Made by a program: the position numbers and the translations under genes. Below are positions 3,215-34,309 of a stretch of 64,000 nucleotides of DNA, one piece after another. The notes beneath the pieces were generated by a model. That model did no database searches and was not told where the DNA came from. It saw nothing but the letters and a program-made list of their open reading frames with translations. Position 1 is the first letter of the stretch. Every line of letters starts with the position of its first letter. This DNA comes from Bacteroidota bacterium. GTDB taxonomy: Bacteria > Bacteroidota > Bacteroidia > 2-12-FULL-35-15. The stretch lies in contig JBQTHQ010000057.1 in the NCBI GenBank assembly GCA_052389695.1, positions 11,774 through 75,773 of the forward strand, given 5' to 3'.

Positions 3215-3570
3215 GCAAAAGTCCTTAAGAGCCGGAGAAAACTAAAGCCTTTAACAAGCTGAATTTTCTCTGCTCCTATAAGACCTGAAAAAACTAAAGT
3301 CCTTAAGGAGCTGAATTTTTAAAGTTCCTATACGACCGCAGAAAATTAAAAGCCCTATAAGAGCTGAATTTATAAACTTCTTTAAAAAGAGTTTTTTTCA
3401 AGCCCTTAAGAGCCGCAGAAAACTAAAGTCTTTAAAGAGCCGATGTTTTCAAGAGGTCTTATACAACCGGAGAAAATAAAAGTCCTATAAGAGCTGAATT
3501 TATAAACTTCTTTAAAAGAGAGTTTTTTCAAGCCCTTAAGAGCCACAAAAAAATGAAAGTCTTTAGGATT
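3215..3570. repeat. degenerate tandem repeat array (iteron-like) upstream of first gene of element
   Basis: Six or more units built on NAGAAAAYTAAAGYC + CTTAAGAGC(T/C)GAATTT at 52-77 bp spacing. A ~130-bp higher-order duplicate contains a 34-bp exact repeat at 3353-3386 and 3483-3516 (cctataagagctgaatttataaacttctttaaaa). Confidence 0.8.
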
Positions 3571-8193: not shown

Positions 8194-8216
8194 AATGATA
8201 AAACAGAGAAACAGAT

Positions 8217-8519
8217 ATGATTTCAAATTACCTGGTGGGATCGGGCATCCTTTACAACAAAAACAAAACAGACATTAATTCAATCAACATGCAGGCAATG
8301 GCAAATGAGAATGACCAGATTAACGAATTAAAACAGCTTATCAATGGAGAATTGAAAGACTGTAATCGCTTCTTATGGCCGAAGGTGTGCGAAATGCAAA
8401 GCACAGATAAAGGAAGGGCAAAGCTGGAAGATATGATTATCCGGTATGTAGCCGAAGAAGGAATGCAGATAGGCTCTGCCATTGCACTTATTGAGCAGGA
8501 GCTTTCGCACATTCTTTAA
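8217..8519 (+). CDS. hypothetical small protein between methyltransferase and helicase genes
   Basis: 100-aa ORF, start uncertain (internal Met MQAMANEND). Confidence 0.3.
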   Translation: MISNYLVGSGILYNKNKTDINSINMQAMANENDQINELKQLINGELKDCNRFLWPKVCEMQSTDKGRAKLEDMIIRYVAEEGMQIGSAIALIEQELSHIL

Positions 8520-8521
8520 AC

Positions 8522-11500
8522 ATGGCACAAGGGTATAAAATGTTCCGAAAAATCGCACAGGAAGTCAACAGGAACTTGCGGGAACGGAAACAAAACTTAA
8601 AGAACATGAAAACAACCGATACCAAAGTCAGTACTGAAACGCTGAAAAAGTTTACCACATTTCTTTTCAGGCACAACACCATTGATGGATATATGCAGGA
8701 TGGGGAAATAAAACAATCCTTCGGACGGATGGGAAAGAAAGCATTTAAGGAGCTTGCTGCATATTTAGGATTAAAAGACTATGATGTTGCATTCAACCCG
8801 GCTGGCCCGGCAGTAAGCGGTGATCTGCGCCTGATGGGAATGTTTGCACCCGATAAAGGAATCTACATTTCCATGAATAAGGATGGAATGAAGTCCGGTA
8901 TTTTATACCGCAGCATCAAACACATGAAAGACTTTTCGGGAGGTAACAACAATTACTTTCCTGAAGGCGACCTCAATCATCCCGATGAAATCAAGGAAAA
9001 AGTGTACAGGCTGTTAAAGCTGGATCAACCCATCACTGCAACCACATTATCAGAACTTAACCGGCTTCCAAATGTATCAGTTGTGAAGATTGCAGATGGT
9101 GGAAAAGAAAATATGGAAGAAAAAGAATTTATCGGGGACAATGACATTACAGATGCCCAATACGCATGGGAAATGCGCCAACTGGAATACCAGCAAATAA
9201 AAGCAATACAAAAAACCGGAAGGCCCAATGTGCTGGATGCCAAAGATGGAGACGAACATGAAAAAATTGTTGAGTGGGCATTGAAGCAAGGCAAGCCTGT
9301 TCCGGCTGATGTATTTGAAGATTATCCCTGGTTAAAGGAAATACAAAAACAAAAGTCCCCAAGTGAAAAAGCTACCAGCACACTTGGACTGTTAACCGGA
9401 GACGAATGGTTCAAACAACACCCGGAGAAAATATTGGGAGAGCAATTCCAAACAACCGACCGTTTCGGAAAACCCGTAACCAAAGTAAAAGGAACAATGG
9501 ATAACATCATTCAGGGTATAGATGTGCCATCGGTAGATGTTCCTGAAGAAACAACCGAAGCCCTGCAAACAGAAATTAAAGAACCCTTACAGCAATTGAT
9601 GAATGATCCTGTAAAGAAAAATAACATCGAGCGTGTTATCAACGAAACTAAAAAAGCACATGCGGATAAGGCAATCAGAAAGCTCAACGGAGAAAAGGAC
9701 AAATACGAAGACGGATGCCCGGAAGAATATTTTTGTTTCGATGATGTAATGCAGCAATACAACAAAGGCATTACAGATGAAGAAATAAAAGCCTGGATAT
9801 GGTACAAGCGGAAAACCGGTGGTTACAACGATGAAAAGGTAATCCTGAATGCAAAGAACGGCTGGTCAAAATATGTTGTTCCATTAGGCCAGGCACATAC
9901 CCACTTAGCAGGATGGCTTAAAACAGGCATCGTTTGCTATTACAAAGGTGATTATATGCCGAGCATTCTATACTATGCCGAGAACATTTACGAACGGCAG
10001 AGTATGCTCCTGAAGGAAAAAGATGCCATTATAAAAGAGTTTGGTAAAGAGCAATACGACCGTCAGTGGGAAGGATTGGAAAATGTAAAACCACCTAAAC
10101 TTACCCTGAATGATCCGAATACTGCTAACCGCTTATTCATCAAACCCGATTCTGCTTTTGCAAAAGAAATCCGTATCAGCCAGCTCGCTGATGAAACAAA
10201 ATTTAATAACTATTCCAAAGAGAAGGGACATTATGTTGAAGGTGCTGTATCATTGGTAGAAGCCTTTAAAACGTGGTTAAGAAATTTACCCAAAGATGAT
10301 TTTAAAAAGTCAACTGACTGGAACATTATCCAGTATTACCTTGATGCGGGAACACCTTCCCGCCATTATGATAAAGAGGAAAAATTGCGTTTAAAGCAAA
10401 ATGCGAAAATGGAAGGCGACCAGTTCTTTGTGCGCTTTCTTGCAGAAGCCTTAACCCGTGAAGACCAGGTACGCATTGAGCAGTTATGGAACTCCAAATA
10501 CAATGGCTATGTAGAAATCAATTATTTCAAAGTACCCGTTGCTTTTACCTGCTCCAGTACATTTAAAAACAAACCCCTATTTATCCGTCCTGCACAGCGG
10601 GAAGGCATTGGCTTTATCAGCGTACACGGTTCGGGGTGCGTAGCCTATGATGTGGGCCTTGGTAAAACTATGACAGCAATTCTTTCGCTTGCACAGGCAT
10701 TGGAAAGCGGACAATGCAAACGTCCTTTCATTGTTGTACCCAATCAAACCTACAAGAACTGGTTAAGTGAATTGCGTGGTGTAGTTGATAAAGGAAAAGT
10801 ATTGCTTTCAGGATTATTGCCACAATACCAGGTGATAGACCTCTACAACCTGGGGACAGAATTTGTTGACCAGCTACGGGATGATAAAGGAAACATCAAA
10901 CCTGTACCGGAGTTCAGTATTTCTGTGTTAACCTATGAAGGATTTAACCGGCTTGGATTTAATGACGAAACCTGGGACACCATTGGCAGCGAGCTGTTCG
11001 ATATACTCAACCAGGGTACAGAAGAAAAACGGGATATGGTAAAGCTCCAGGAAAAAATCAACGAAATGATGGGAAAAGGCATCAAGGGCGGTTCGGTTGA
11101 CATTGAGAATTTAGGTTTTGATTACATGGTGGTGGATGAAGCTCATGCCATGAAAAAATCCTTTACGCAGGTAAAAGGACAAATAAAAGGAGAAACAGGT
11201 GCAAGAGAAAAAGCATCCTACGAAATCCGTTCAGGATCACCGTCCATGACTGCCCTTCGTGGCTTTATGGTTAGCCAGTATATTTTACGCAATAACCAAA
11301 TGCGGAATGTATTACTGCTGACGGCTACACCGTTCACCAACAGTCCGCTTGAAATCTATTCCATACTGGCGCTCATTGGTTACCAGCAGTTAGAAAAATG
11401 GGGCATTAAAAACATCAAAGAGTTTTTTGATACGTTCATCAAAACCAGTATGGAGCTGGTGATTAACGCCAAGCTGAAACCCGAACGCAGAGAGATTGTA

Positions 11501-19693: not shown

Positions 19694-20296
19694 TCATTTG
19701 ATTACACTTGTTAATATTCTATTTATCCATGCAGGAGCAAGTTTGGCATCATGCAAAATGTTTTTCTTTTTTTCCTTTCTCAAAATTTCTAACATTTTTT
19801 TTAGGCTATCATCTTCTACTTTATCCTGGCCAATGCTTTTAAGAGCTTGAATTACAAGACTGCTTATTTCTCCTTCAGCTAATAAATTTTTAGGACTTGT
19901 TTTCTTAAACGTAATTGTTCTTTTCCCAATTTTGATACTTCGTGCAGCTCCGTCCGTAAGAAAAACTACTTTCAATGGCACTTGAGTTGATAACCCCAAT
20001 TTATTTAGAGCTTGGATACCGGTCGGAATTATTCTTGCCCTATCTCTTTTTGCAATAGCTACTGCTACCTGTTCAGCGGAAGGATATAATATTCCTAAAT
20101 CTTTATCCTTTTTAGGATATAGATAAATACCATGAGCTATTCGGACAAGCATTCCTTTCTTCTCTAATCTGAATAGAGCTTTTTTCACACTTTCAGGATT
20201 GCCAAAATCTAAAAAGTCATCTACAAATAGAATACTTCCTTTTAGCAGCTTCTTTAATGCTTCAGCGACTTTATGTTCTACAATTGGTCTTTCCAT
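19694..20296 (-). CDS. AbiEi family antitoxin / transcriptional regulator
   Basis: Directly upstream of and 1 bp from the AbiEii gene. Segment ALFRLEKKGMLVRIAHGIYLYP fits the AbiEi N-terminal winged-helix pattern. The ORF extends to 20470, but the Met at 20296 gives the typical ~200 aa. Confidence 0.65.
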   Translation of the reverse strand: MERPIVEHKVAEALKKLLKGSILFVDDFLDFGNPESVKKALFRLEKKGMLVRIAHGIYLYPKKDKDLGILYPSAEQVAVAIAKRDRARIIPTGIQALNKLGLSTQVPLKVVFLTDGAARSIKIGKRTITFKKTSPKNLLAEGEISSLVIQALKSIGQDKVEDDSLKKMLEILRKEKKKNILHDAKLAPAWINRILTSVIK

Positions 20297-20586
20297 AAGT
20301 ACAATTTCGTCCCAAATATAGTAAATATTTGGGACGGGAAACATTGAGAGCCAATAATTTTTCCAAATAGGTTTAAATCCCCCGGTTCTTTCTTCAAAAA
20401 GTTGTATGCAGCAAACTTTCCTAACTGCCTTATTCTCCTGCATCCACTTGTAAAAGTTGTGGTAAAACACAAGTAACCACCTTTTAAACCACTGTCATTA
20501 CTCAGAATTTTGACCTCGCAAGGTTTAAATACCAATTCACAAAAAGGCAAACGATTAAAATCAAAAACCATTTAAAAATCATTCAC

Positions 20587-20760
20587 ATGGAAAGTAACGC
20601 AGTATCCAACACAAACTGGAAAGAAATCGGAATCACAGCAGGAATTGTTCTTGTGGTTGGCTTTGTTGCCACCCTCGGAGCATTATATGCCCATGAAGGC
20701 ATCAAGAAAATTGCTGCGAAAAAATCTTCTTCAAAGGAGGCTGATTCCAAAAAGGCTTAA
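20587..20760 (+). CDS. small membrane protein
   Basis: 57-aa ORF with one TM (ITAGIVLVVGFVATLGALYA) and a Lys/Ser-rich tail. Confidence 0.3.
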   Translation: MESNAVSNTNWKEIGITAGIVLVVGFVATLGALYAHEGIKKIAAKKSSSKEADSKKA

Positions 20761-20829: not shown

Positions 20830-21702
20830 ATGAATAAATATAACGAAGAAATTCGCAAGTATGAAAAAGAGGCCGAAGACCGTTACGATGATTATGATGA
20901 CGATAATTACGATGACGACAACTTCGACACCGGCCTGGAAGGGCAAGATTCGTATGATGAAGATTCATACGAAGAAGTAGAATACATTGGAGAGGACAGC
21001 TACGATGATGATTCATACGATAACTACGCTGCCAACTCAATCGGAAAAATCAATCCGAACGACAGAACCCTAACGATCACTATTACCAATACCTCCGGTG
21101 CAGATGCGGAAGCAATTGTATTTGGCGGTAACGAAAACGCAGCGCAACCCGCAGGCGTTCTTGTAGTGGTACAGGAAAGTTCGCACAGCGAAGTGAGAGA
21201 GGAAAGTAAAGCTAATCCTTTCAAAATCCAGGGAATGAAAATGTCCGTGTCTGATCCTTTGCAATTTGACAACGTTTGGAAAATCCTGCGTAAGTCAGCT
21301 GCCGGATCATTCAATTCACACCCGTACCAGCCACGTAATGCTACCTCGCCTCAAAACACCAATCCTAACCTGATTGATGACAGTGCGTTCGAGATGGACG
21401 TAACTGGCCAGGACAGCATCCGCTTTTTCCAAAAGGCTGGCGTAAAAACTACGCTGACCTTCACAATTAAAGCCCGTGTTGATATGGGTAATGTGTTGGC
21501 TGGACAAAATGTGGCAGAAGTATCTACCGCACCACGTCCAACAGGATTGCCTCAAATTGACTTGGCTAAACAGGCTCCTAAACCTGTATTTGGAGTAAAA
21601 CCGAAAATGAAAAAAATGGTTCGCAAAGTAGTTCGCAGACCAATTGGCGGTGGAAGACCAAGACCAGGTGGACCAAAAAGGCTGTTAAGAAAACGCAGAT
21701 AA
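20830..21702 (+). CDS. hypothetical structural-protein candidate (D/Y-rich N-terminus, Arg-rich C-terminal tail)
   Basis: 290 aa. N-terminal DSYDxD/DDYDDD repeats, a central beta-rich region, and a C-terminus RRPIGGGRPRPGGPKRLLRKRR typical of nucleic-acid-binding tails. Followed by a strong terminator. Confidence 0.5.
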   Translation: MNKYNEEIRKYEKEAEDRYDDYDDDNYDDDNFDTGLEGQDSYDEDSYEEVEYIGEDSYDDDSYDNYAANSIGKINPNDRTLTITITNTSGADAEAIVFGGNENAAQPAGVLVVVQESSHSEVREESKANPFKIQGMKMSVSDPLQFDNVWKILRKSAAGSFNSHPYQPRNATSPQNTNPNLIDDSAFEMDVTGQDSIRFFQKAGVKTTLTFTIKARVDMGNVLAGQNVAEVSTAPRPTGLPQIDLAKQAPKPVFGVKPKMKKMVRKVVRRPIGGGRPRPGGPKRLLRKRR

Positions 21703-21806: not shown

Positions 21807-22334
21807 ATGTGTAAAGGAAAGGCACAAAATAGAATTGATTACATCGTCCTGCAAAGACCATCCGAAGCAGCAAAGATAGTTGAGAAATACGGGTATGAAG
21901 CTCCGGGAAAGGTAGATGACCTGGTGAAGTCAGTAAAGCTCCTGGTGAAGAAAAAAGGCGAACCGGTTATCAAGGATTTGATCGGCATACACCCGGAGAA
22001 GAAACTCATCCTGGAAGTGTCTGGTCATAAAAGCAATGAGGACAGCTATTGTGGATGCCACAGTTCCTATTCAGGAGAAACAAAAGAACTGCTTGACAAA
22101 CTATCTGAACTATCAGTAGAGGATCTCACCAAACTCTATGACGATACAAAAAAGCAATCGAAGGATAATCCTGAAGATAAAACCCTGATGGCGCAGGTGG
22201 AAACAGTTTGGGATGAAATCAAACGCAGAAAAAAGCAAACGGAAAAAATTGAAAAGAAACAGGAGAACGGCTTATGGCTGAAAGTTGCTGTTGGAGTAAT
22301 TGTCGGAATAGTCATCGGAAAAGCACTTAGCTAA
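21807..22334 (+). CDS. tail-anchored charged protein (paralog family member)
   Basis: 175 aa, K/E-rich, single C-terminal TM LWLKVAVGVIVGIVIGKALS. Confidence 0.5.
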   Translation: MCKGKAQNRIDYIVLQRPSEAAKIVEKYGYEAPGKVDDLVKSVKLLVKKKGEPVIKDLIGIHPEKKLILEVSGHKSNEDSYCGCHSSYSGETKELLDKLSELSVEDLTKLYDDTKKQSKDNPEDKTLMAQVETVWDEIKRRKKQTEKIEKKQENGLWLKVAVGVIVGIVIGKALS

Positions 22335-22336
22335 AA

Positions 22337-22954
22337 ATGGTCAGAATAATTAACCAAGAGAAACCAAAAGAGCCGGAAGCAAAGCTAACGGAAAAATCAA
22401 AAGCCCTGCTTCAGATTATCGCAATCATTATTGCCGATAAACCTAAAGCCGTTCAGGAACTTTTGGAAAGTTACAGCATTGAGTTTTCGGAGAAGCTGGA
22501 TGAAAAAGAGCTTACCGATAAACTGCTTTCAGCCATTGGAGAATGTGATAAACACTTCAACAATGATTTGACACGGATTATCCTGGACTGCACTCTTGAA
22601 AATGATTATGACGGCTTTGATTTTAAATCTCTTTTCAAAAAAGGAGAAGATTCCGGTGGAGAAGAAAGTGGATCCGGTGGCGGTGGTGGATTATGGGCAG
22701 GCATCGGAAGCGCAATTGGAGGAATTGCAGGATCAATTGGTAGCGGAAGAAGGGCAAGAGAAGAAGCAACCACTAAAACTCTCCAGGGCATATACGCATA
22801 CAAGGCGCAGCTCGCATCGAACGAACAAAACAAAGGTAAAAACAAGAAGCAAATGATAATTGCACTGTTTGTAATTCTTGGATTAGTCCTTCTTGCTGCT
22901 GCCTATTTCAGTAATAAGAAACAACCACAACAAGTACCAGCATTAAAAGCCTAA
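22337..22954 (+). CDS. tail-anchored Gly-rich protein (paralog family member)
   Basis: 205 aa with a Gly-rich segment (GGEESGSGGGGGLWAGIGSAIGGIAGSIGSG) and C-terminal TM MIIALFVILGLVLLAAAYF. Confidence 0.5.
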   Translation: MVRIINQEKPKEPEAKLTEKSKALLQIIAIIIADKPKAVQELLESYSIEFSEKLDEKELTDKLLSAIGECDKHFNNDLTRIILDCTLENDYDGFDFKSLFKKGEDSGGEESGSGGGGGLWAGIGSAIGGIAGSIGSGRRAREEATTKTLQGIYAYKAQLASNEQNKGKNKKQMIIALFVILGLVLLAAAYFSNKKQPQQVPALKA

Positions 22955-22958
22955 TACC

Positions 22959-23402
22959 ATGATACAACAAAACAATTACGGTCTCAACGGTATCTCTAAC
23001 TACTATGGTTATGACGATGACGGCTACGATCATCTCTTTAAAAGATTCAGAGAGAAACGAGCAGAAAAAAAAGAAGAAAGACAGGAAAAAAAAGCCGATA
23101 GAAAACAACGCAAAGAAGACAGGCGTTCCGAAAGGCAAGAGAAGCGTGAACTGAATAGCGAAAAAAAACGCCTGAAAAACGAATTGAAACAAACGCAAAT
23201 TGAGGAGAAGAAAGCCTCGCTCAATATGCTCAATCAACAAGGCCAAATGCCACCTCCGGGACCAGCTCCGGCAAGTGGTGGTGACAATACCATGATTATA
23301 GTTGCGGTTGTTGGCGTTTTAGTCCTTGCTGGTGCAGGGTATATGATGATGAATAAAAAACAAACTCCGGTAATGCAACCGGTCTATGCGAAAGCAGCTT
23401 AA
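22959..23402 (+). CDS. tail-anchored protein with D/Y-rich N-terminus and charged single-helix region (paralog)
   Basis: N-terminal YYGYDDDGYDHLFKRF, an ER/K-rich stretch, a Pro/Gly linker, and C-terminal TM IIVAVVGVLVLAGAGYMMM. Confidence 0.55.
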   Translation: MIQQNNYGLNGISNYYGYDDDGYDHLFKRFREKRAEKKEERQEKKADRKQRKEDRRSERQEKRELNSEKKRLKNELKQTQIEEKKASLNMLNQQGQMPPPGPAPASGGDNTMIIVAVVGVLVLAGAGYMMMNKKQTPVMQPVYAKAA

Positions 23403-23426
23403 TACTAACCATTAAAAACAATAGCC

Positions 23427-24053
23427 ATGATTATCGGAGAAACCTTTAACGAAAACAGCTACTACGGATACGAAGAAGAAAATTACGACTATCTGTTCAA
23501 GCGAAAATCAAAAGAAGAACGTCAGCAAAAAAAAGAAGAAAGAAAGCAGAACCGGACTGAAAAAAAACAGCTAAGACAGGACAAGCGAACTGAAAAAAAA
23601 TTGCAGAAACAAGATCCTGCATCGGGAGGAAAACGCAGACTTCCTATCCTCGGAAATTTTGGACTGTTCGATAAGAACAAAAACAAAAAAAATGCAGGCA
23701 CTTCCGGTGGTGTTGCCAATTCACCGGCAAAAAAAGAACCAGGGGATACTTCTGAACCTTCAACAATTGAAGAAAAAAGGATAGCTATGGCAAGTGCAGG
23801 TGCAGCAGCTACTCAGGATAAATCCGAAGGAAGTAAAACTTCAGGAAATGAATCCGATACAGAAGGATCATCGGTAGCAAAATTAGAAAGCAAAGAGCTG
23901 GATAAAAACGGCAACCCTAAAAAAGAAGCCGGTTTCGGGCCAATGTTCGGTTTTGCCATGCTTGGTATTACCGTCCTGGTTGTCGGAGCGGTACTCTACG
24001 GAGTTAACAAAAAATCCAATCCTTCTCCGCAATCAATAAAAGTTGCAGCATAA
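23427..24053 (+). CDS. tail-anchored protein with D/Y-rich N-terminus and charged single-helix region (paralog)
   Basis: N-terminal YYGYEEENYDYLFKRK, ER/K-rich stretch, C-terminal TM FGFAMLGITVLVVGAVLYG. Clear paralog of 22959-23402. Confidence 0.55.
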   Translation: MIIGETFNENSYYGYEEENYDYLFKRKSKEERQQKKEERKQNRTEKKQLRQDKRTEKKLQKQDPASGGKRRLPILGNFGLFDKNKNKKNAGTSGGVANSPAKKEPGDTSEPSTIEEKRIAMASAGAAATQDKSEGSKTSGNESDTEGSSVAKLESKELDKNGNPKKEAGFGPMFGFAMLGITVLVVGAVLYGVNKKSNPSPQSIKVAA

Positions 24054-24068
24054 TTAAAATTATTTAAC

Positions 24069-24296
24069 ATGGACATTTTAGCAGAACCTATTGAACAGGA
24101 AGTAAACGTTGACGGTGCAACCCCACAGGGGGCGCTATTTATTTCCGTGAAAAATACAGGAGCCAACATCGCAACTTTTAACGGAGTTTCCCTGCCACCT
24201 GGTGAGGCCAAGAGCTATTCTTTTGTTGGTAAAGGTTATAAGGCATTGCCTTATGTAGTCAACGGTTCTACTCTCAAATTACTTTACATCCTTTAA
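24069..24296 (+). CDS. small hypothetical protein
   Basis: 75-aa ORF, beta-rich composition. Confidence 0.4.
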   Translation: MDILAEPIEQEVNVDGATPQGALFISVKNTGANIATFNGVSLPPGEAKSYSFVGKGYKALPYVVNGSTLKLLYIL

Positions 24297-24308
24297 AATT
24301 TAGAAGCA

Positions 24309-24815
24309 ATGATAAGAGCCGAAAAAGCACAACGCATCATGCAGCTTTACGAAGATGATTATGATAACTTCCTCGATAAGCTGAAAGCCAAACGCAAGGC
24401 GAAAAAAGAAGCAGCAGCACAGAAAAAAGCAGAAGCCGATAAAGCCGACAAAACCGTTTCGGAAGCTGAAGCATACAAGAAAAAACATCTTGGTCAAAAA
24501 GCAAAAGACCTCCTGGATAAAGCCGGAGGAATTGAAGGTGCTACCAGTACCATCAAAAACGTGATGGGATATTTCAAGGATAATACTCCTTCGGATTATG
24601 ACATCAACATGGGCGGTACAGGTGAAGATCCCAAACCTGAAAAGAAAATCTTTGGGCTTCCCCCGGTGGCAGTTTATGCTGGAGGCGCAGTTCTGCTTTT
24701 GGCAGGACTTTATGGCTTATCCCGCTTCCTGAAAAATAAAAACGCACAGGTACAATCCCAAACACAAATACCCGCAGCACCTTCGGCAGAACCAGTTTTA
24801 CAAGCAGCAGCATAA
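24309..24815 (+). CDS. tail-anchored charged protein (paralog family member)
   Basis: 168 aa, K/A/E-rich N-terminus, C-terminal TM VAVYAGGAVLLLAGLYGL, Ala-rich C-terminal end as in the siblings. Confidence 0.5.
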   Translation: MIRAEKAQRIMQLYEDDYDNFLDKLKAKRKAKKEAAAQKKAEADKADKTVSEAEAYKKKHLGQKAKDLLDKAGGIEGATSTIKNVMGYFKDNTPSDYDINMGGTGEDPKPEKKIFGLPPVAVYAGGAVLLLAGLYGLSRFLKNKNAQVQSQTQIPAAPSAEPVLQAAA

Positions 24816-24819
24816 TATC

Positions 24820-25617
24820 ATGGTCATTCCAATTCCATCACAACAACAGAAGTTCAAAGTCAAGATAGGCATTCGTGCTTTTGAGCCTTGTGCATTGGCC
24901 GTTCGTTGCTTTGATGCAACTAAACCAAATACAGATTATATCCGAAGGAGAGTTCCTTTTAAGAAAGATGTATTTAAAGGGAAGAATCCAGGGTATAGGG
25001 AATTTACTCTGCCCTTTCCACTTTCTCCCGATCAGCTAATGGTAGAAATGCAGGATAAAACCTATGGTGATGATACGCATTTCAAGGTTGAAAAATTTGA
25101 ACTGGAAAAAATCAAACCAAGAGCTGTTTGGGCTGAACCTCAAATGCACCGTTTTATTGACTTTGCACAGGATTTTGCAAGCAAAGCAGGTTATCTGCCA
25201 ACTGGAGTTTACGACAGCAAGGATGGAGATTTCTTAATCCAATACCTGCCTGTTATTGAAGATGAGCAGGGAGATCCATTAGTTACGCCTGCACGAACCA
25301 ACCGTAAGTCAGGGAGAATGCAAATATCCCAAGCGGCATTTGCTGGCTATACAATCCCGGTAAGGCTTGTGGTAATGTTCCATGAGCGCTTCCATTTTCA
25401 GATACCTACAAGACTTGAAAAACCAGCCGATCTGACAGGAATACGCCTGTACCTGGACTTGGGATTTCCAAGACTGGAAGCGATTTATGCGACTACCAAG
25501 ATTTTTAGCGCACATCCTGAATCAGTAGGACAAGGCCACTTAACAAGAGTAGAGGACATAACGCAATTCATTGATTGGTATTCACAAAAAAACAATTTGA
25601 AATTAAATGAAGCGTAG
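24820..25617 (+). CDS. hypothetical protein
   Basis: 265-aa ORF, no recognisable motifs. Confidence 0.45.
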   Translation: MVIPIPSQQQKFKVKIGIRAFEPCALAVRCFDATKPNTDYIRRRVPFKKDVFKGKNPGYREFTLPFPLSPDQLMVEMQDKTYGDDTHFKVEKFELEKIKPRAVWAEPQMHRFIDFAQDFASKAGYLPTGVYDSKDGDFLIQYLPVIEDEQGDPLVTPARTNRKSGRMQISQAAFAGYTIPVRLVVMFHERFHFQIPTRLEKPADLTGIRLYLDLGFPRLEAIYATTKIFSAHPESVGQGHLTRVEDITQFIDWYSQKNNLKLNEA

Positions 25618-27547
25618 CGGAAACATAGGAATTAATTTTTTAGCGCAAAGCATCAAGAAGATTTTATCTGATAAGAAAAAATCTAATGAGGAGAACTTTG
25701 TCGAAAAAACCTATGAAGGTACTGACGATAATTTCTTTGAGGCTACCAATACTAACCTTCGTGTTAAACTTGGACTGGATAAGAAAAGTGAGAGCTATGA
25801 AAAAGATTTAAAGCGTTTCGGTACAAAAATAAAACTCATTGATGTTGCGGATGATGCTATTCCAAACAAACGCATTAAAGAAGTTTTACCACTTAAAAAA
25901 CCAGCCAAATCTGCCCAGGAAAAGTTTGAGGAAAAGTATGAAAAGGATTTAAAACGCTTCGGTACTCGTCAAGGTATTATCCGGGTATCGAACGATGATC
26001 CGGCAAGAAGGAAAAAACCAAAACCTTTTCCAACCAATTTTAGCAAGGCAGCTTACGACAGCATGATGAGCAAATGGAAAACCCGTGAGGTTACTCCATT
26101 TTCCGTTAATCCATTTTCTGACATCTACCGTGAGTTCCCTAAAGCACAGGTAACAATACAAAACAAATCCACTGAAGAAAAAGAAGTGGTGTTATGGGGA
26201 GCAAATCAGAACATCAGTATAAGCGCACCTGGTCCCGGAGATGTTCAGGATCATACCATCGTTGCACAGATCAGTATTCCATCAGGTGTTCACCCGCAGG
26301 GTATTGTTGTTAATCCAGCCAACCAGCTTGTATATGTTGCCAACCAGTTAAGTGGTTCTGTAACCGTCCTGGATGGAAACAATCAGGTTGTAAAAGTGAT
26401 ACAGCTACAACCTACATTTCCCGGATTTGCTTCTCCCGTTGCACTCACTGTAAACTCCAAAAGCTCCAGCAGCAAGTATGGATATGTTTATGTAGTATGC
26501 TCGGTTGCCAATGTACTTGCGGTAATTGATTTATCGCTGAACGTAATTGACTATGTACCCGTTGGAACCCGGCCAGTTGCAGCAGCTTTCAATCCGGTAA
26601 ACCTTCGTGTATATGTGGCTAACCTGGTGAGTGATAACCTGAGTGTTATTGATGCTGAAGCATTAACCGAAATACCAGGCTCACCACTTCCAACAGGACA
26701 GGATCCTATTGGTGTTGGAGTTGATCCCGTAAACGGAGACATCTATGTTGCCAATTCGCTGGCCAACAGCATTACTGTTTATGATAGCACCAACACGCTG
26801 GCAACCACAATTCCGGCAGTTGGGCAATACCCTGTATCAATCACTTATAACGCTGCTAACGACACCATGTATGCCGTAGCAACCAACAACAATTTTGTCT
26901 ATCAGATCGAAAGGGCAACACATACCATTGTTGGAATAATAGAGGTTGGAAGCAAACCCTACAATGCCTTCTATGATTCATATAACGGTTACCTGTATGT
27001 TCAGAACCGGGCTGATAATACGTTCACCATTATTCGCCCGGACAATAGCAAAGTGGATGGGTTAAGTTTCGGAGAACAAAATATTGGTGGAGCTTTCAAC
27101 AGCTTCAACAAAACAATTTACGTTTCCGATACCAGCAATAATACCATAACCGCAATTGGTTATCTGCCTGTAAGCAGTACCCTTTCTATTAATTCCGATT
27201 ATGCTGAAATGCGTGAGGATCTGCAAAGCAATCCTGCGGTAATACAACACGCAAAATTTGTGGTAACCGGAACAGAAAGATTAAACAGCTTCCGTGTAAA
27301 CAAGTTCACGCCAACTGGTAGTATCAAAAGCAAGCCTATCTCTTTTGAGTTATACGCAAGCCCTCAAAGCATATTGAATGTTGCTGAAGTAACAGAACTG
27401 GCCGGAACTGTCATTGACGGTAAAATGAACTGGAGGTTCAAGCTCCCTGGACTGCATACCGTGAGCATCCTGGTTTGGTATCGCCAATTTGAAGTACGAG
27501 AAATTTTAAGCCCGACAAACAATAAATCAATAATTAAAAATCAATAG
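25607..27547 (+). CDS. YVTN-family beta-propeller repeat protein (receptor-binding/structural candidate)
   Basis: At least six ~40-aa repeats of the YV(A/V)N ... S(V/I)(T/S)V(I/L/Y)D type (YVANQLSGSVTVLD, VYVANLVSDNLSVID, IYVANSLANSITVYD ...). N-terminal duplicated motif YEKDLKRFGT(K/R). Confidence 0.65.
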   Translation: MKRSGNIGINFLAQSIKKILSDKKKSNEENFVEKTYEGTDDNFFEATNTNLRVKLGLDKKSESYEKDLKRFGTKIKLIDVADDAIPNKRIKEVLPLKKPAKSAQEKFEEKYEKDLKRFGTRQGIIRVSNDDPARRKKPKPFPTNFSKAAYDSMMSKWKTREVTPFSVNPFSDIYREFPKAQVTIQNKSTEEKEVVLWGANQNISISAPGPGDVQDHTIVAQISIPSGVHPQGIVVNPANQLVYVANQLSGSVTVLDGNNQVVKVIQLQPTFPGFASPVALTVNSKSSSSKYGYVYVVCSVANVLAVIDLSLNVIDYVPVGTRPVAAAFNPVNLRVYVANLVSDNLSVIDAEALTEIPGSPLPTGQDPIGVGVDPVNGDIYVANSLANSITVYDSTNTLATTIPAVGQYPVSITYNAANDTMYAVATNNNFVYQIERATHTIVGIIEVGSKPYNAFYDSYNGYLYVQNRADNTFTIIRPDNSKVDGLSFGEQNIGGAFNSFNKTIYVSDTSNNTITAIGYLPVSSTLSINSDYAEMREDLQSNPAVIQHAKFVVTGTERLNSFRVNKFTPTGSIKSKPISFELYASPQSILNVAEVTELAGTVIDGKMNWRFKLPGLHTVSILVWYRQFEVREILSPTNNKSIIKNQ

Positions 27548-27549
27548 CC

Positions 27550-28128
27550 ATGAACAACAAATTAAACTACTTAGTGCTTCATTGCACCGCAACACCTGAA
27601 GGAAGACCAGTAACAAAAGATGACATCATTCGCTGGCACACAAACCCTATTCACCTTGGAGGTCGTGGATGGAACCGTCCCGGATATTCTGACCTTGTAG
27701 AGCTTGATGGAGACTTGGTAAGTATCATTCCTTTTAACACAGACGACTTTGTTGACCAGTGGGAAATCAGCAACGGTGTAGTGGGATTAAACGGCAATGC
27801 CCGTCATATCGTGTATGCAGGTGGAATGGACACGGAAAACAAAAAGCCAAAAGATACCCGCACCAAAGAACAATTGGCAACGCTTGAAGTGTATGTAAAA
27901 TACACCATCAAACGCCATCCGAAAATTTTAGTGTTAGGACATAACGAAGCTCCTAATGCAAATGGCAAAGCCTGCCCAAGTTTCAATGTAGGTGAATGGT
28001 TACGTTCCATCGGTGTAGCTGAAGCAAACATTTATAATAAACAAGTTGCGGAAGAAAAAAAGGAAGCAGTAGTAGCTACTACTACCATTGAAGAAATAAG
28101 CAATACCACAACTGAAGCTGAAGCATGA
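27550..28128 (+). CDS. N-acetylmuramoyl-L-alanine amidase (Amidase_2/PGRP, T7-lysozyme-like endolysin)
   Basis: LVLHCTATPEG and HNEAPNANGKACPSF motifs, 192 aa. Confidence 0.8.
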   Translation: MNNKLNYLVLHCTATPEGRPVTKDDIIRWHTNPIHLGGRGWNRPGYSDLVELDGDLVSIIPFNTDDFVDQWEISNGVVGLNGNARHIVYAGGMDTENKKPKDTRTKEQLATLEVYVKYTIKRHPKILVLGHNEAPNANGKACPSFNVGEWLRSIGVAEANIYNKQVAEEKKEAVVATTTIEEISNTTTEAEA

Positions 28129-28319
28129 GAACCATCTTAATACTCGCTGTTGGTGTTTGGATTGGCAGGGAAATCTACACGACACACGCCAAAAATCAGG
28201 CGAAAGAACGTGAAGTAAAAATCCGTAAGGCGCTGGAGAAGTTTATCCAGGAGAAACTGCCAACCCTTACACCAGCAGATATGCAAAAAGAGGTTGAAGG
28301 AATATTAAAAGTGTCATAG
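28125..28319 (+). CDS. small N-terminal-TM protein (lysis-associated candidate)
   Basis: 64 aa, start overlaps the amidase stop (ATGA). TM ILILAVGVWIGREIY followed by a charged tail. Confidence 0.4.
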   Translation: MRTILILAVGVWIGREIYTTHAKNQAKEREVKIRKALEKFIQEKLPTLTPADMQKEVEGILKVS

Positions 28320-28337: not shown

Positions 28338-28772
28338 ATGGCAACAGTAATACAGGACATCATTATACCGGAGAAAAGTTCCGAATGTTCGGAATGGATC
28401 AGCTATTTCAAGAAGCTGGAAGAAAAGTTCGGTGCGGAGAATGCCAAAACAATTTGGTTAAAGACCTGGCAGGTGAACGGCTCAACAGCTTCCTGTACCA
28501 CTCGCCCGGACTTCAATGCCTTTTTCAAAAAGCATGACATAGATGTTACCAACATGGCCACAGCAGCCGTTGCATCGGCAGCGGACTTGGGAGGCAGTAT
28601 CATGGGTCTTGGTAAAGGCATTACCAAAGTGCTGACCTACGGAGTACCGATTGTAATGACTGCCGTGATTGCAGCTATACTTTATGCCATTGTCAAAGTA
28701 GCTAAAAATACAACTGCATCCGATGTTGCGATGCTAACACCGCAAGGGAGGGCGGCTTCTTTACTCAAATGA
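28338..28772 (+). CDS. membrane protein (C-terminal TM)
   Basis: 144 aa, TM VPIVMTAVIAAILYAIV. Confidence 0.4.
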   Translation: MATVIQDIIIPEKSSECSEWISYFKKLEEKFGAENAKTIWLKTWQVNGSTASCTTRPDFNAFFKKHDIDVTNMATAAVASAADLGGSIMGLGKGITKVLTYGVPIVMTAVIAAILYAIVKVAKNTTASDVAMLTPQGRAASLLK

Positions 28773-29311: not shown

Positions 29312-29524
29312 ATGGCAGAGACAACACAAGATAAAGAACAGAAAAAAGGATTACTGAAAAAATACCTCGATAACACTTTTGGGGATGAAGGCTTACGCAC
29401 CGATGTAAAAATAACCCTCACCAACGAGACGATTTTCAAGTTCGTTGCTGCGGTGGTTGTGGCTACCGGGTTAAGCACCGCTACTTACTATGTTATAAAA
29501 TCAATGTTCACTGGCAAAGCCTGA
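29312..29524 (+). CDS. small C-terminal-TM protein
   Basis: 70 aa, TM FVAAVVVATGLSTATYYVI. Confidence 0.35.
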   Translation: MAETTQDKEQKKGLLKKYLDNTFGDEGLRTDVKITLTNETIFKFVAAVVVATGLSTATYYVIKSMFTGKA

Positions 29525-31309: not shown

Positions 31310-33013
31310 ATGAGCTTCATAGGAGGTTATCAAAGCGATGTAAATCTTAACGATATTAATTACGTTGGAGATTTCCCTGCCGATCATGCACTCGGAGGAT
31401 ACGGTGTTGCCACCGGAATAAACGGTTATGTACTTACTCTTAATCCACCATTATCACAATATCGTGATGGACAAAGGCTTGAAGTTAAGTTTCAAAATTC
31501 CAATACAGGAGCTTCGCTTATTAACGTGAATGGAAAAGGAAATATTCCCATCAAAAAGGTGGTGGATAACAACCTGGTGGATGTGGAACCGAATGATTTA
31601 AAGGCGAACCAGCAATATATTTTAATCTTTGATGGAAATGTGTTTCAGGTAGTTAACCTGGACGATAATTCCCCTTTGCCATTGGCAGACGAGAATAAGC
31701 CCGGTGTAACAGAAAGAGCAACACAAGGAGAAGTGAATGCGGGCGTGGACGATGCAAGACATATTACAGCATTAAAACTCACCAATTGGTTTTTAACCAA
31801 AGTTGCAACAGAAGCCACTCCGGGTATTTCCATGATTGCAAGTCAGGCAGAAGTAGATGATGGGGAAGACGATGCCAAATTCGTTACGCCTTTTAAACTC
31901 GCTTCCTACGTTGCAGACAAGCTCACAGGGCTTTGGGAAGACAAAGGATTGATAAACGCTTCCACTAACCCGAACTATCCGGCTGGTCAGGTCGGGGATG
32001 CTTATACAATAAGCGTAGGTGGTAAAATAGGCGGATTATTCGGAGATGATGTACAGGTAAGGGATGTGATTTATTGTACACAGAACAATCCCGGAGGTAA
32101 TAAAGAAGAAGTAGGCTATGCCTGGAATATCATTCAATCCAATTTAGTTCAGGCAACTGAAGCCATTGCGGGTTTTGCTCAAATTGCATCACAAGCCGAA
32201 GTTACAGCCGGAGTAAATAATTCCAAATTCTTAACTCCATTAAAATTGGTAACCTGGTTTGCGGCTCAACTGGCTACGGAAGCCCAAGCAGGCATTTCAG
32301 AAAGAGCAACACAGGCAGAAGTAAATGCAGGTGTGGATGATCTGAGACACATTACACCTTTGAAATTAGTTACCTGGTTTGCATCACAGCTTGCGACCGA
32401 AGTGCAGGCAGGAATTTCAGAGCGGGCAACTCAAGCGGAAGTGAATGCCGGAGTAGATGATGTGCGTTATGTATCACCGCTTAAACTCACTACGTTACTT
32501 AATTCAGTAGTGCAACAAGCTACGGAAGCAATAAAAGGAATTGCCGAAATAGCTACTCAGGCAGAAACCGATGCAGGAGCCGATGACAGCAGGATAATAA
32601 CTCCCCTGAAACTGAAGGTAAGACTTGACAATTACGTCAACCGGGAAGCAATTTTATCTCTTGGCAATGAAAACATCAATCCGAATTTCTTCTGTACTCC
32701 CGGACGGAATAAACTTGCTTTGATTAACGGAAATCTATTGGTTGCAAGAGATTTCAGATTTAAACCCAATGCCGTTCCTGCTGTTGTTGCCACGCATGTT
32801 TTAAACTTTCCCAAACCAGTTTACATTGGAGCTGGCTTTTCAGGAATACTTATCAGCAATGTAGGTGAACGTTTCATGTATAGTATTGATAGCAGCGGAC
32901 GGGTGTCTTTATTCGGAACCTTTAACCAAGCGAATGATGAGCTGCTTTTTAATATCAACCCTTACGTTGCGAAATTCCCAATTGAGTTTCATCCAACTCA
33001 GCCTCCATCCTAA
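31310..33013 (+). CDS. tail fibre protein with Phage_fiber_2-type repeats
   Basis: At least six ~40-aa repeats of the form GI(S/A)E(R/I)ATQAEV(N/T)AGVDD ... (I/V)TPLKL. 567 aa. Confidence 0.7.
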   Translation: MSFIGGYQSDVNLNDINYVGDFPADHALGGYGVATGINGYVLTLNPPLSQYRDGQRLEVKFQNSNTGASLINVNGKGNIPIKKVVDNNLVDVEPNDLKANQQYILIFDGNVFQVVNLDDNSPLPLADENKPGVTERATQGEVNAGVDDARHITALKLTNWFLTKVATEATPGISMIASQAEVDDGEDDAKFVTPFKLASYVADKLTGLWEDKGLINASTNPNYPAGQVGDAYTISVGGKIGGLFGDDVQVRDVIYCTQNNPGGNKEEVGYAWNIIQSNLVQATEAIAGFAQIASQAEVTAGVNNSKFLTPLKLVTWFAAQLATEAQAGISERATQAEVNAGVDDLRHITPLKLVTWFASQLATEVQAGISERATQAEVNAGVDDVRYVSPLKLTTLLNSVVQQATEAIKGIAEIATQAETDAGADDSRIITPLKLKVRLDNYVNREAILSLGNENINPNFFCTPGRNKLALINGNLLVARDFRFKPNAVPAVVATHVLNFPKPVYIGAGFSGILISNVGERFMYSIDSSGRVSLFGTFNQANDELLFNINPYVAKFPIEFHPTQPPS

Positions 33014-33025
33014 TCCTAAAGACGT

Positions 33026-34309
33026 ATGGCAGGCGGTGGATATGATAGCGACCTTAATCTCAATAATGTTAAGTTAATTGGAGATTTCCCGATTGAACAT
33101 TCTCTCGGAGGTCATGGTATTGCTGATAATCAGGAAACCAATAAATACATTCTAACGCTTACTCCACCAATTACGCATTACCGGATCGGATTAACATTGA
33201 ATGTTATTTTCTCTGTTACCAATGAAGGAAGTGCAACCCTGAACGTGAATAATCAGGGTGAAATAACTATCCAAAAGGTTATTGAGGACCGTCTGGTAGA
33301 TCTTGATAAGAAAGATATTGTAGTTGAAAAAGTTTATCTATTGGTATTTGACGGACGGGTATTTCAAATCGTTAATAATTATTCTCCAGGAATCATTGCC
33401 TTTCCAATTTCCTCTGAAAATTCTTTGGGGCTTATTGAAATTGCGACACAGGCAGAAGTAAATACCGGAACAGACAATCAAAGAGCCGTTACCCCGCAAA
33501 AGCTCGCACAATACGTTGCAGATAAAGTTACCGGACTTTGGGACGACAAGGGATTATTGGATTGTTCTTTAAATCCTAACTATCCGGCTGCTTTAAAAGG
33601 CGATGCTTATACCGTTAGCGTTGCCGGAAAAGTTGGCGGACCAGCTGGTACAGATGTACAAGTTAGAGATGTTGTTTACTGCACAATTAATAATGCAGGA
33701 GGCACAGAAGCAGCGGTGGGTGCATCATGGAATGTAATTCAGGGAAATCTTGTTCAGGCAACCACAGCACTGGCCGGAATAGCAAGAATTGCTACACAAG
33801 CTGAAGTAACTGCCGGAGTAGACGATACCAAATTTGTAACACCTCTAAAGCTCATAACCCTTTTAAACAGTAAAAAGATGCGAACACAAATCCGTTTTCA
33901 ATCGGATTCACTTCCTGAATCAGAAGTCCCGTCAGGTACATTAGCTGACTATCATTTCGGGATAATACCCGTTACCGGTATTCCGGCAGGATCCACCATA
34001 CGGCAAGCCTCATTGTCCTGGGAAGGGTATCTAAGGAATTTAGATACGGATAGTCCCAACAGCTTCAATAGCGGAAATCTCGCAATGCAGAGAGACGGTG
34101 GTGCATTTAGCAATTATCTGAACGTTGTAACCAAACTCCAGTTAGGCCCAGGGCAGGTAACCTTCTTCAGGTATGTAGAGGACGATGTAAAAAGCCTTGC
34201 AATAGGTAATGGAACATACCTGGCCAAATTAGCTAATCTAAGGGCATTAGGAAAGAATATAGCGATTGCCGGGCACTGGACACTTGAAATTGATTATGAA
34301 ACACCCTAA
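33026..34309 (+). CDS. tail fibre protein, paralog with different C-terminal domain
   Basis: N-terminus MAGGGYDSDLNLNNVKLIGDFPIEHSLGG parallels MSFIGGYQSDVNLNDINYVGDFPADHALGG of the upstream gene. Shares IATQAEV ... TPLKL repeats. C-terminal 150 aa are unrelated. Confidence 0.65.
   Translation: MAGGGYDSDLNLNNVKLIGDFPIEHSLGGHGIADNQETNKYILTLTPPITHYRIGLTLNVIFSVTNEGSATLNVNNQGEITIQKVIEDRLVDLDKKDIVVEKVYLLVFDGRVFQIVNNYSPGIIAFPISSENSLGLIEIATQAEVNTGTDNQRAVTPQKLAQYVADKVTGLWDDKGLLDCSLNPNYPAALKGDAYTVSVAGKVGGPAGTDVQVRDVVYCTINNAGGTEAAVGASWNVIQGNLVQATTALAGIARIATQAEVTAGVDDTKFVTPLKLITLLNSKKMRTQIRFQSDSLPESEVPSGTLADYHFGIIPVTGIPAGSTIRQASLSWEGYLRNLDTDSPNSFNSGNLAMQRDGGAFSNYLNVVTKLQLGPGQVTFFRYVEDDVKSLAIGNGTYLAKLANLRALGKNIAIAGHWTLEIDYETP

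Follow-up and report, generated by a model that had tools for sequence, protein, structure and literature searches.

Tailless bacteriophages that contain a membrane are thought to be abundant in water but have been sampled very poorly, and of all parts of their virions the membrane proteins are understood least. Among the proteins that take part in the assembly of PRD1 (Tectiviridae) are a lytic enzyme associated with the membrane and a packaging ATPase that is soluble. P23-77 (Sphaerolipoviridae) is an internal-membrane phage with a shell made of single jelly rolls of two sizes, and its basic VP11 protein is not known to be membrane-anchored; a very basic minor protein of this phage is reported, in the title of work by Pawlowski and colleagues from 2015 (cited in PMC6356626), to act between capsid and lipid. 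For PRD1 it was described that the membrane proteins enter the host cytoplasmic membrane and that a virus-specific patch is pinched off and coated by cytoplasmic capsid proteins, and for the small transmembrane proteins P3 and P6 of PM2 (Corticoviridae) it was proposed that they act as a template by which the capsid is brought into register with the lipid vesicle (PMC6356626). Here we describe an array of five genes for tail-anchored proteins, A to E, located in a 64,000-nucleotide stretch of a Bacteroidota genome (the window; assembly GCA_052389695.1, contig JBQTHQ010000057.1, positions 11,774 to 75,773). The window is a piece of Bacteroidota chromosome, and the array belongs to an element that is integrated in Bacteroidota chromosomes, is widespread, and is neither held nor named in the databases searched. 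Our best explanation, to which we give roughly an even chance, is that A to E are membrane proteins that serve virion assembly in a tailless, membrane-containing virus-like element not described before, and that they tether its membrane to a shell of the neighbouring gene product p290, or to DNA, by complementary charge.

The five open reading frames (ORFs) reported in an earlier note on this DNA, with lengths of 175, 205, 147, 208 and 168 residues, are present on the + strand: A175 (21807..22334), B205 (22337..22954), C147 (22959..23402), D208 (23427..24053) and E168 (24309..24815). They lie in a single tightly packed operon, with intergenic gaps of 2-24 bp in the array, p290 at one end, and p646 and a lysin at the other. 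The array was described as tandem, which is correct insofar as the five genes share one operon, but it is interrupted between D and E by s75 (24069..24296, + strand), encoding a 75-residue non-membrane protein that looks beta-rich. Each of the five proteins has exactly one strongly hydrophobic 19-mer (Kyte-Doolittle 1.9-2.8), which is C-terminal and followed by 0-30 residues, and charged residues make up 27-35% of each protein. The predicted membrane helices span residues 155-175 in A175, 173-192 in B205, 111-131 in C147, 168-193 in D208 and 114-138 in E168, the last followed by a 30-residue tail. The combination of charge in the N-terminal part with one membrane helix at the C-terminal end, proposed earlier for all five, is borne out by hydropathy and by the orthologues, as among ~65 loci the C-terminal anchor was kept in 64/64 A, 63/63 B and 62/62 E proteins and in 77/79 proteins at the middle positions. 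Hydropathy detected no signal-peptide-like hydrophobic N-terminal segment in A, C, D and E, and a hydrophobic stretch at residues 24-33 of B205 falls within a conserved helical domain.

The same five proteins had been taken for paralogues. By BLASTP only C and D were significantly similar to each other (E 3e-12, 46% identity, N-terminal 48 residues). When family profiles were made from the positional orthologues of the ~65 loci, with membrane helix and tail removed, and compared by hhalign, A matched B (94.8%, E 5e-8, 59 columns, covering a common N-terminal helical domain), E matched both D (95.4%, E 1.9e-8, 43 columns) and C (89%, E 2e-6, 23 columns), and C matched D (93%, E 3.3e-7, 41 columns). 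Paralogy outside the membrane helix thus holds within A and B and within C, D and E, but not between the two sets, for which the best comparison reached 34% over 6 columns and was not significant. The five proteins are two old paralogue groups of common design, A/B and C/D/E, and not one family. Group A/B is characterized by a conserved domain of ~70 residues (QNrIdYIV...yGyE.P...HPDKkaIL). Members of group C/D/E begin with an MIxGETE-like start and an acidic-aromatic YDDF[LF] motif or a variant of it (YDxF/L), which leads directly into a basic tract; the N-terminal part has a median net charge of +7 (E) to +23 (middle-position genes), and distant orthologues carry Arg-rich runs.

Within group C/D/E, the acidic-aromatic motifs YYGYDDDGYDHLFKRF and YYGYEEENYDYLFKRK noticed earlier in the ORFs starting at 22959 and 23427 are both present. 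C147 consists of an N-terminal YYGYDDDGYDHLF motif, an ER/K tract (residues 28-77), a Pro/Gly linker and the membrane helix, whereas in D208 the N-terminal motif is MIIGET...YEEENYDYLF, and a basic tract and a long linker of low complexity come before the membrane helix. E168, the most widely conserved of the five, has the MIxGETE...YDDF arrangement and then a basic tract. An ER/K single alpha-helix had been predicted for both C147 and D208, but only C147 has a tract of at least 30 residues in which E, R and K make up 70% or more, Pro is absent and Gly occurs no more than once; D208 is Q-rich and stays under this threshold, as do A, B and E. This ER/K character is limited to the clade of the window, the distant orthologues being plainly polybasic. 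The linker rich in Gly and Pro that had been ascribed to all five is clear in C and E and partial in D, but lies in the middle of the protein in B and is absent in A. Likewise, the Ala-rich tails (ALKA, AKAA, KVAA, QAAA) do occur but are limited to the close clade and rare in distant orthologues, and we rejected the idea that they represent a conserved tag. The cores of the membrane helices are Gly-rich.

In group A/B, the AlphaFold model of A175 has a pLDDT of 70, with its helices in residues 9-71 and 125-174. Five short helices (pLDDT 79-89) are followed in it by a loop, by a helical hairpin and by a continuous helix from 125 to 174 that enters the anchor, and a Foldseek search with the model gave no neighbour in the PDB better than E 0.75. 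In 55/64 A orthologues the domain is followed by a zinc-ribbon-like CxxC-x11-13-CxxC motif, of which a C-G-C-H remnant is left in the clade of the window. An anti-sigma factor (ZAS) identity for A was considered and rejected, since the Cys motif lies outside the helical bundle and no sigma gene is nearby. B205 additionally has a D-x-F-D-F acidic-aromatic motif, a Gly-rich segment and a K/Q/A-rich helix. The Gly-rich segment, at residues ~105-140 (GGGGGLWAGIGSAIGGIAGSIGSG), is glycine-zipper-like and scores as a second hydrophobic helix in some orthologues (loci L020 and L058 of the scan described below); it may be membrane-interacting. Taken together, the lack of a signal peptide and the Cys motif of the A orthologues favour a cytoplasmic location for the N-terminal parts of A to E. 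The suggestion that the proteins are spike stalks finds no support.

All five ORFs are real genes under purifying selection. The ratios of nonsynonymous to synonymous substitution (dN/dS), which were obtained against relatives of 34-90% identity and are approximate as dS is near saturation, were 0.05-0.08 for A, 0.10-0.12 for B, 0.07-0.20 for C, 0.26-0.28 for D, which is the least constrained, and 0.08-0.15 for E. In Pfam, PHROGs, NCBIfam and PADLOC, A to E and their neighbours gave only sub-threshold matches driven by composition (Podoplanin, SNARE, Rrn6 K-rich, LPXTG anchor and the like). A/B and C/D/E are two new tail-anchored families with no counterpart in Pfam, PHROG, NCBIfam or the PDB. 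A sortase or exosortase sorting signal was also considered, as the LPXTG_anchor score of C147 was marginal (16.7 bits against a cut-off of 15.9, with no single stretch passing; Pfam E 0.024), and was rejected because A to E have neither a signal peptide nor an LPXTG motif and the host is a member of the Bacteroidota.

The element is by no means restricted to the window. In a scan of the contigs of 185,579 species-representative genomes, one per species, 114 related loci were found, of which the best 80 were retrieved. One of them (L003) is a contig of a metagenome-assembled genome (MAG), CAYLVB010000004.1, labelled 'uncultured Flavobacteriaceae bacterium', with 100% identity to the window. The element was found in Kordia, Aquimarina, Dokdonia, Formosa, Flavivirga, Nonlabens, Fulvivirga, Splendidivirga and Roseivirga, as well as in many MAGs, and several genomes carry more than one copy (two in Kordia algicida OT-1, four in Dokdonia ponticola, two in Aquimarina latercula and two in A. 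algicola). In every locus complete enough to judge (~65 loci) the gene order is constant: a small membrane protein, p290, A, B, zero to two middle genes, s75, E, p265, p646 and the lysin. The middle genes, of the C/D type, form several clusters, and the positional orthologue of E168 follows s75 in 62 loci. For A175 there are 96 close homologues, and a search of 1.84 billion proteins with the profile of the A family gave, at E<=1e-3, 459 representatives of clusters at 50% identity, including shorter forms of 112-180 residues that keep the domain, a Cys cluster and the C-terminal helix. No description of the element was found in the literature, and a search of PLSDB with p290 gave no relative.

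A distant lineage, with an ATPase 31% identical to that of the window, was found on three metagenome contigs of 8-16 kb (L084, L085 and L086). It keeps A and B, both shorter, the A gene being among the short forms matched by the A profile, and has an HExxH protein and three tandem tail-anchored proteins, two of which match the C/D/E profiles, with N-termini of the FFGKKARKRRK type, the third being of similar design with a weaker YFLHKKK-type start. The retention of A, B and at least two genes of the C/D/E type in this lineage points to old families. It also has a RusA gene, a 1089-residue Zeta-toxin protein and a 29-residue membrane protein that replaces s57. A 241-residue protein of this lineage was missed by the p290 profile, and has an acidic-aromatic N arm and a basic tail like those of p290.

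The genes surrounding the array are those of a candidate particle operon, which in the window reads s57, p290, A, B, C, D, s75, E, p265, p646 and amidase. p290 (20830..21702, + strand) is a candidate shell protein whose beta-sandwich core (residues 79-214) lies between an acidic-aromatic N arm and a C tail rich in Arg and Lys. Its 356 homologues are hypothetical proteins throughout and come almost entirely from Bacteroidota; identity across families is 55-98%, and the dN/dS of p290 is 0.04-0.07. The neighbours of its predicted fold, all of them weak, include the nucleoplasmin core (probability 0.99), satellite tobacco mosaic virus (STMV)/satellite and picorna-like capsids, and PRD1 P5 (0.72). 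Two matches of p290 in BFVD, the top one being an unnamed 643-residue protein of an uncultured virus (E 4.8e-5) and the other a protein of Virus NIOZ-UU157, were taken as generic beta-sandwich similarity; in the literature the latter name was met only in a paper about a Chryseobacterium phage and in another about virus-host patterns in ancient DNA. p646 (25607..27547, + strand) is a paralogue of p290 and a candidate vertex or spike protein, in which the beta-sandwich is split by a ~320-residue beta-propeller of the YVTN/NHL type (Pfam Lactonase/NHL at 217-393). The two proteins are collinear in BLASTP, with residues 83-108 of p290 corresponding to 182-207 of p646 and residues 117-176 to 530-588 (E 0.017 and 2e-4).

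At the 5' end of this operon, s57 (20587..20760, + strand) encodes a 57-residue single-pass protein, in which a short N end precedes a hydrophobic core of 24 residues and the C tail is rich in Lys; a small membrane protein is found at its position in nearly all loci, and the orientation expected for s57 is opposite to that of the tail-anchored proteins. s75 had tblastn matches in 65 loci, with a median identity of 53% in distant loci and a dN/dS of 0.02-0.13, and no family match in Pfam or PHROG. p265 (24820..25617, + strand) is a candidate zinc peptidase, with H188-E189-x-x-H192 invariant in an alignment of 20 orthologues; searches of Pfam, PHROGs, NCBIfam and PDB sequences matched it to nothing. 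The last gene of the operon encodes the lysin, an N-acetylmuramoyl-L-alanine amidase (27550..28128, + strand; Pfam Amidase_2 4e-7, phrog_822 amidase 6e-40). Upstream, at 16609..17520 on the + strand, lies a gene for a soluble P-loop ATPase of the Zot / A32 / HerA neighbourhood (Pfam, PHROG), a candidate for packaging or morphogenesis. Its orthologues matched Pfam Zot in 21/21 cases (best 3.6e-7), Pox_A32 in 5/21 and HerA in 5/21, the NCBI label on its relatives is 'zonular occludens toxin domain-containing protein', and it also matched phrog_2666 (6e-6). No hydrophobic segment was seen in it by hydropathy, and a profile search gave no match among PDB sequences.

The operon belongs to an island of roughly 32 kb on the + strand, extending from ~2.5 to ~35.8 kb of the window; from 36.5 kb onward the window encodes a TonB-dependent receptor, a resistance-nodulation-division (RND) pump and proteins with type IX secretion system (T9SS) tails. 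By hydropathy, 14-16 proteins of the island are predicted membrane proteins, 7 of them with a C-terminal anchor. Family searches in Pfam and PHROG found no HK97-type capsid, portal, terminase or tail gene among the island proteins, no families of conjugation or secretion systems were found among them, and none gave a double-jelly-roll capsid match in Pfam, PHROG or PDB sequences; p290, modelled as a single sandwich, is the only beta-rich ORF of 250-400 residues in the island. It was for this reason, that a double-jelly-roll capsid was sought and not found, that we did not file the island with the tectivirus and corticovirus group.

The charges of p290 and of the array vary together. Across 54 loci the net charge of the p290 N arm ranged from -18 to -53 (median -34.5) and that of the C tail from +13 to +38 (median +25), and the two were inversely correlated (rho -0.94, and -0.98 when the loci were collapsed to 17 representatives). 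The charge of the N arm was likewise correlated with the summed charge of the N-terminal parts of the tail-anchored proteins (rho -0.80 in the 54 loci, -0.84 in the 17 representatives). With p265 as a control, rho was -0.15 in the 54 loci but -0.50 after collapse to 17, and because the control also correlates after collapsing, the charge signal must be partly compositional.

Among described systems, PM2 offers the closest analogy for the role proposed here for A to E; PM2 is tailless, and its small membrane proteins P3 and P6 are virus-encoded, by genes in the structural region. PM2, however, has a double-jelly-roll capsid and a 10-kb genome, in contrast to the single beta-sandwich proteins and ~32-kb island found here, and Pfam and PHROG searches gave no similarity between P3/P6 and A to E, the design of which is set beside them by description. 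Like PRD1, the element has many small membrane proteins, a lysin and a soluble ATPase, and the assembly proposed below fits the patch model of PRD1, but no homologue of P3, P31 or P9 and no terminal-protein or DNA polymerase genes were found, and the sole link is the weak fold match between p290 and P5. The layout of P23-77 is resembled, again by description, by p290 with its larger paralogue p646 and the basic C/D/E proteins; on the other hand, the assignment of p290 to the jelly rolls is weak, and the 320-residue propeller inserted in p646 suggests a spike and not a capsomer. As with the membrane proteins of PM2 and PRD1, homology of A to E to VP11 was not detected. The nucleoplasmin/nucleophosmin core, the best neighbour of the p290 core (probability 0.99, TM-score 0.5 on the target), provides a further comparison, as nucleoplasmin is a jelly-roll-type beta-sandwich with long acidic tracts that bind very basic partners. 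Here too p290 differs, in that it adds a strongly basic tail and is encoded in a virus-like operon, and with E ~5e-3 and 7-12% identity the likeness is one of analogy and not of membership. Finally, A to E resemble eukaryotic and bacterial tail-anchored proteins of SNARE-like topology in having a single predicted helix within 0-30 residues of the C terminus and no predicted signal peptide, and the 50-residue tract of 70% E/R/K in C147 and the long predicted helix of A175 that enters the membrane recall ER/K single alpha-helix domains; both are topological or compositional classes and not homologous families.

In the assembly that we propose, A to E would be inserted in the cytoplasmic membrane after synthesis, with their N-terminal parts facing the cytoplasm, and would mark a virus-specific patch. 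The basic tracts and the acidic-aromatic YDxF-type motifs of C, D and E would pair with the oppositely charged arms of p290, which would fasten the lipid vesicle to the protein shell and set the two in register, as was suggested for P3 and P6 of PM2. A and B would supply their folded helical domain, which in most lineages includes the zinc-ribbon-like Cys motif, as a second attachment point. In a variant of this scheme, the basic N-terminal parts would hold DNA against the membrane instead. Since the fibre proteins encoded downstream and the p646 of the window have no signal peptides, the outer surface of the particle would be finished in the cytoplasm, which favours an internal rather than an external membrane. 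We also counted in favour of a virus-like element the mobile behaviour of the island, that is, the genomes with several copies and a slot of variable cargo. As a more specific and tentative proposal, which we think has appreciably less than an even chance, the element may belong to an unrecognised lineage of membrane-containing viruses or virus-like particles across the Bacteroidota, with a nucleoplasmin-like single beta-sandwich shell that carries acidic-aromatic and basic arms and is assembled by the pairing of charge blocks with a tail-anchored polybasic array. Such an organisation fits none of the tailless phage families compared, and current virus-detection pipelines appear to miss it.

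The earlier suggestion of envelope or internal-membrane proteins of a lipid-containing virion is favoured by the operon context, and a number of points weigh against it. The element is known here from its genes alone. No double-jelly-roll capsid protein was detected, and one may be present that has diverged past detection. Neither an integrase, a Rep, an att site or att direct repeat nor a tRNA gene was found for the island, and contigs of 16-31 kb with close relatives did not define the ends of the element. Scans of the 2.9 M viral contigs of IMG/VR with single proteins and with profile patterns gave no relative, and tblastn of p290, the ATPase and p646 against INPHARED gave nothing but a beta-propeller match. 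The p290 model is of low confidence (pLDDT 61 overall, ~80 in the core, with disordered arms), and its neighbours in the PDB by Foldseek are weak ones of the jelly-roll type only (best E 3e-3). Topology was judged from hydropathy and charge counts, and the numbers of K and R flanking the membrane helix of C, D and E are similar on both sides. If the vesicle is of the PRD1 type it would turn its cytoplasmic face to the capsid and the basic tracts would miss the DNA, so that their resemblance to nucleic-acid binders would be coincidental. The charge correlations are partly compositional, as noted above, and phylogeny was controlled for only crudely.

Alternatively, the particle may be a wrapped or enveloped nucleoprotein in which A to E, anchored in the membrane, condense the DNA; we regard this explanation as unlikely. 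The basic parts of C, D and E and the tail of p290 would bind the genome on the cytoplasmic face, the membrane would close round this core so that the N-terminal parts end inside, and p290 would be a nucleocapsid and not an outer shell. A median charge of +7 to +23 in the N-terminal parts of C/D/E, the Arg-rich runs of their distant orthologues, the +13 to +38 of the p290 tail and the fact that no large capsid protein was found all agree with this, and in the model for PM2 the virus-specific membrane area meets nucleic acid before it pinches off (PMC6356626). However, the fibres and the p646 of the window have neither signal peptide nor anchor and must therefore join the outside of the particle while in the cytoplasm, the C-terminal tails of 0-30 residues would leave little on the outer face to hold them, and in the clade of the window the basic tracts are largely neutralised by Glu, which would be odd for DNA binding. 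A filamentous, inovirus-like or otherwise extruded particle, in which a Zot-type ATPase drives assembly, s57 is the major coat protein and A to E are minor coat or assembly proteins, seems to us quite improbable. Structural proteins of inoviruses are nearly all single-pass membrane proteins, as are many proteins of the island, the ATPase matches Zot in all 21 orthologues, and s57, with its short N end, 24-residue core and Lys-rich tail, is shaped like an inovirus coat protein that lacks a signal. Yet the ATPase lacks the membrane helix of the inovirus pI protein and also matches the A32 and HerA packaging ATPases, an island of ~32 kb with two lysins, fibre genes and beta-sandwich proteins does not fit, no rolling-circle Rep was found, and the scans of IMG/VR gave no relative.

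Little probability is likewise given to a role in lysis or membrane remodelling, with A to E acting as holin-, antiholin-, spanin- or fusogen-like proteins at release or entry and not as tethers in the particle. The single-pass proteins do share an operon with the amidase, the membrane-helix cores are Gly-rich, and B has a coiled-coil-like helix next to its anchor, a very weak SNARE-domain match (E 0.23) and the glycine-zipper segment. But five to seven genes are far beyond what a lysis cassette needs, three genes separate E168 from the amidase, which is directly followed by another small membrane protein (28125-28319), the conserved N-terminal parts (110-190 residues) are large and unlike those of holins, and no PHROG lysis family was matched. 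It is similarly doubtful that the island is non-viral, either a mobile element or a vesicle or secretion apparatus of the Bacteroidota in which A to E form a membrane scaffold. In its favour are the searches of IMG/VR, INPHARED and PLSDB, in which no relative was found, the lack of a recognised capsid, portal or integrase, the unusually high conservation of p290 across families and its best structural neighbour, a cellular chaperone fold; these are set against the phage-type amidase, M23 or CHAP lysins, tail-fibre repeats and A32/Zot-type ATPase, the multiple copies and defence-cargo slot typical of prophages, and the absence of conjugation or secretion-system families. Least credible of all is the superinfection-exclusion array put forward in the earlier note, in which the membrane proteins would block the entry of related elements. 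It is in keeping with the membrane location and with the variable C and D positions (zero to two genes, in several unrelated-looking clusters), but A, B and E are syntenic core genes at fixed positions of a structural operon in essentially every complete locus and are under purifying selection, the real cargo is located elsewhere and on the opposite strand, and PADLOC gave no match.

If the element makes particles, as in the assembly of a p290 shell on a lipid vesicle favoured here, it would represent a new kind of Bacteroidota virus, and p290, A and E could serve as marker genes for such elements in metagenomes. It would also provide a tractable system in cultured hosts for studying what couples a protein shell to a lipid vesicle, as the element occurs in the cultured marine genera Kordia, Aquimarina, Dokdonia, Formosa, Nonlabens and Fulvivirga. 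If no particles are made, the array would still be an unusual conserved membrane scaffold in need of explanation.

The part of the island downstream of the amidase encodes ~9 more small membrane proteins, as well as an M23 peptidase and two fibre proteins that contain tail-fibre repeats. By hydropathy, two of the small proteins have a C-terminal membrane anchor, a conserved 144-residue protein (28338..28772, + strand), with matches in 61 loci, and a 70-residue protein (29312..29524, + strand), with matches in 37 loci; the former indicates that the tail-anchored design reaches beyond the five proteins of the array. The two fibre-like genes are adjacent (567 and 427 residues, 31310-34309), have their N-terminal ~30 residues in common and together contain 8 copies of a 40-residue repeat (ATQAEVNAGVDDxRxITPLKL) that matches the tail-fibre families phrog_972 and phrog_910.

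The variable cargo slot is located between s57 and a conserved module that ends in the ATPase gene, and its contents are always on the opposite strand. In the window it contains an AbiEii toxin and its DUF6088 partner (18691..20470, - strand; Pfam 1.4e-35 and 2.4e-84), which lie outside the array. In relatives the slot holds AbiE with an MmeI-type restriction enzyme and an AAA_23 ATPase, a type I restriction system, or a hybrid sensor kinase with a hydrolase and KAS III (slot at 1257-9445 in L083, 19-6985 in L089 and 4531-9221 in L087). At 17926-18469 of the window there is a DNA methyltransferase (phrog_799, 3e-29) split into two overlapping frames (17926-18261 and 18113-18469), explained either by a frameshift in a pseudogene or by an error of the assembly. 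Two giant genes (3610-13267) occupy the left third of the island, one of 1527 residues with DUF6908/DUF1249 and an N6 methylase and the other of 1581 residues with an SNF2 helicase; their presence in few relatives suggests that they are anti-restriction or other cargo and not part of the core. Immediately 5' of the methylase gene, at the left edge of the island, a non-coding gap of 1.1 kb contains an iteron-like array (3219-3557) made up of direct repeats, four of ~50 nt and two of 85 nt; it could be an origin or a regulatory region. Outside the island, an unusual ORF of 1468 residues (42517-46923) encodes a complete AcrB-type RND pump (Pfam ACR_tran, 7e-287) fused to the domain of an outer-membrane efflux protein (OEP/TolC-like).

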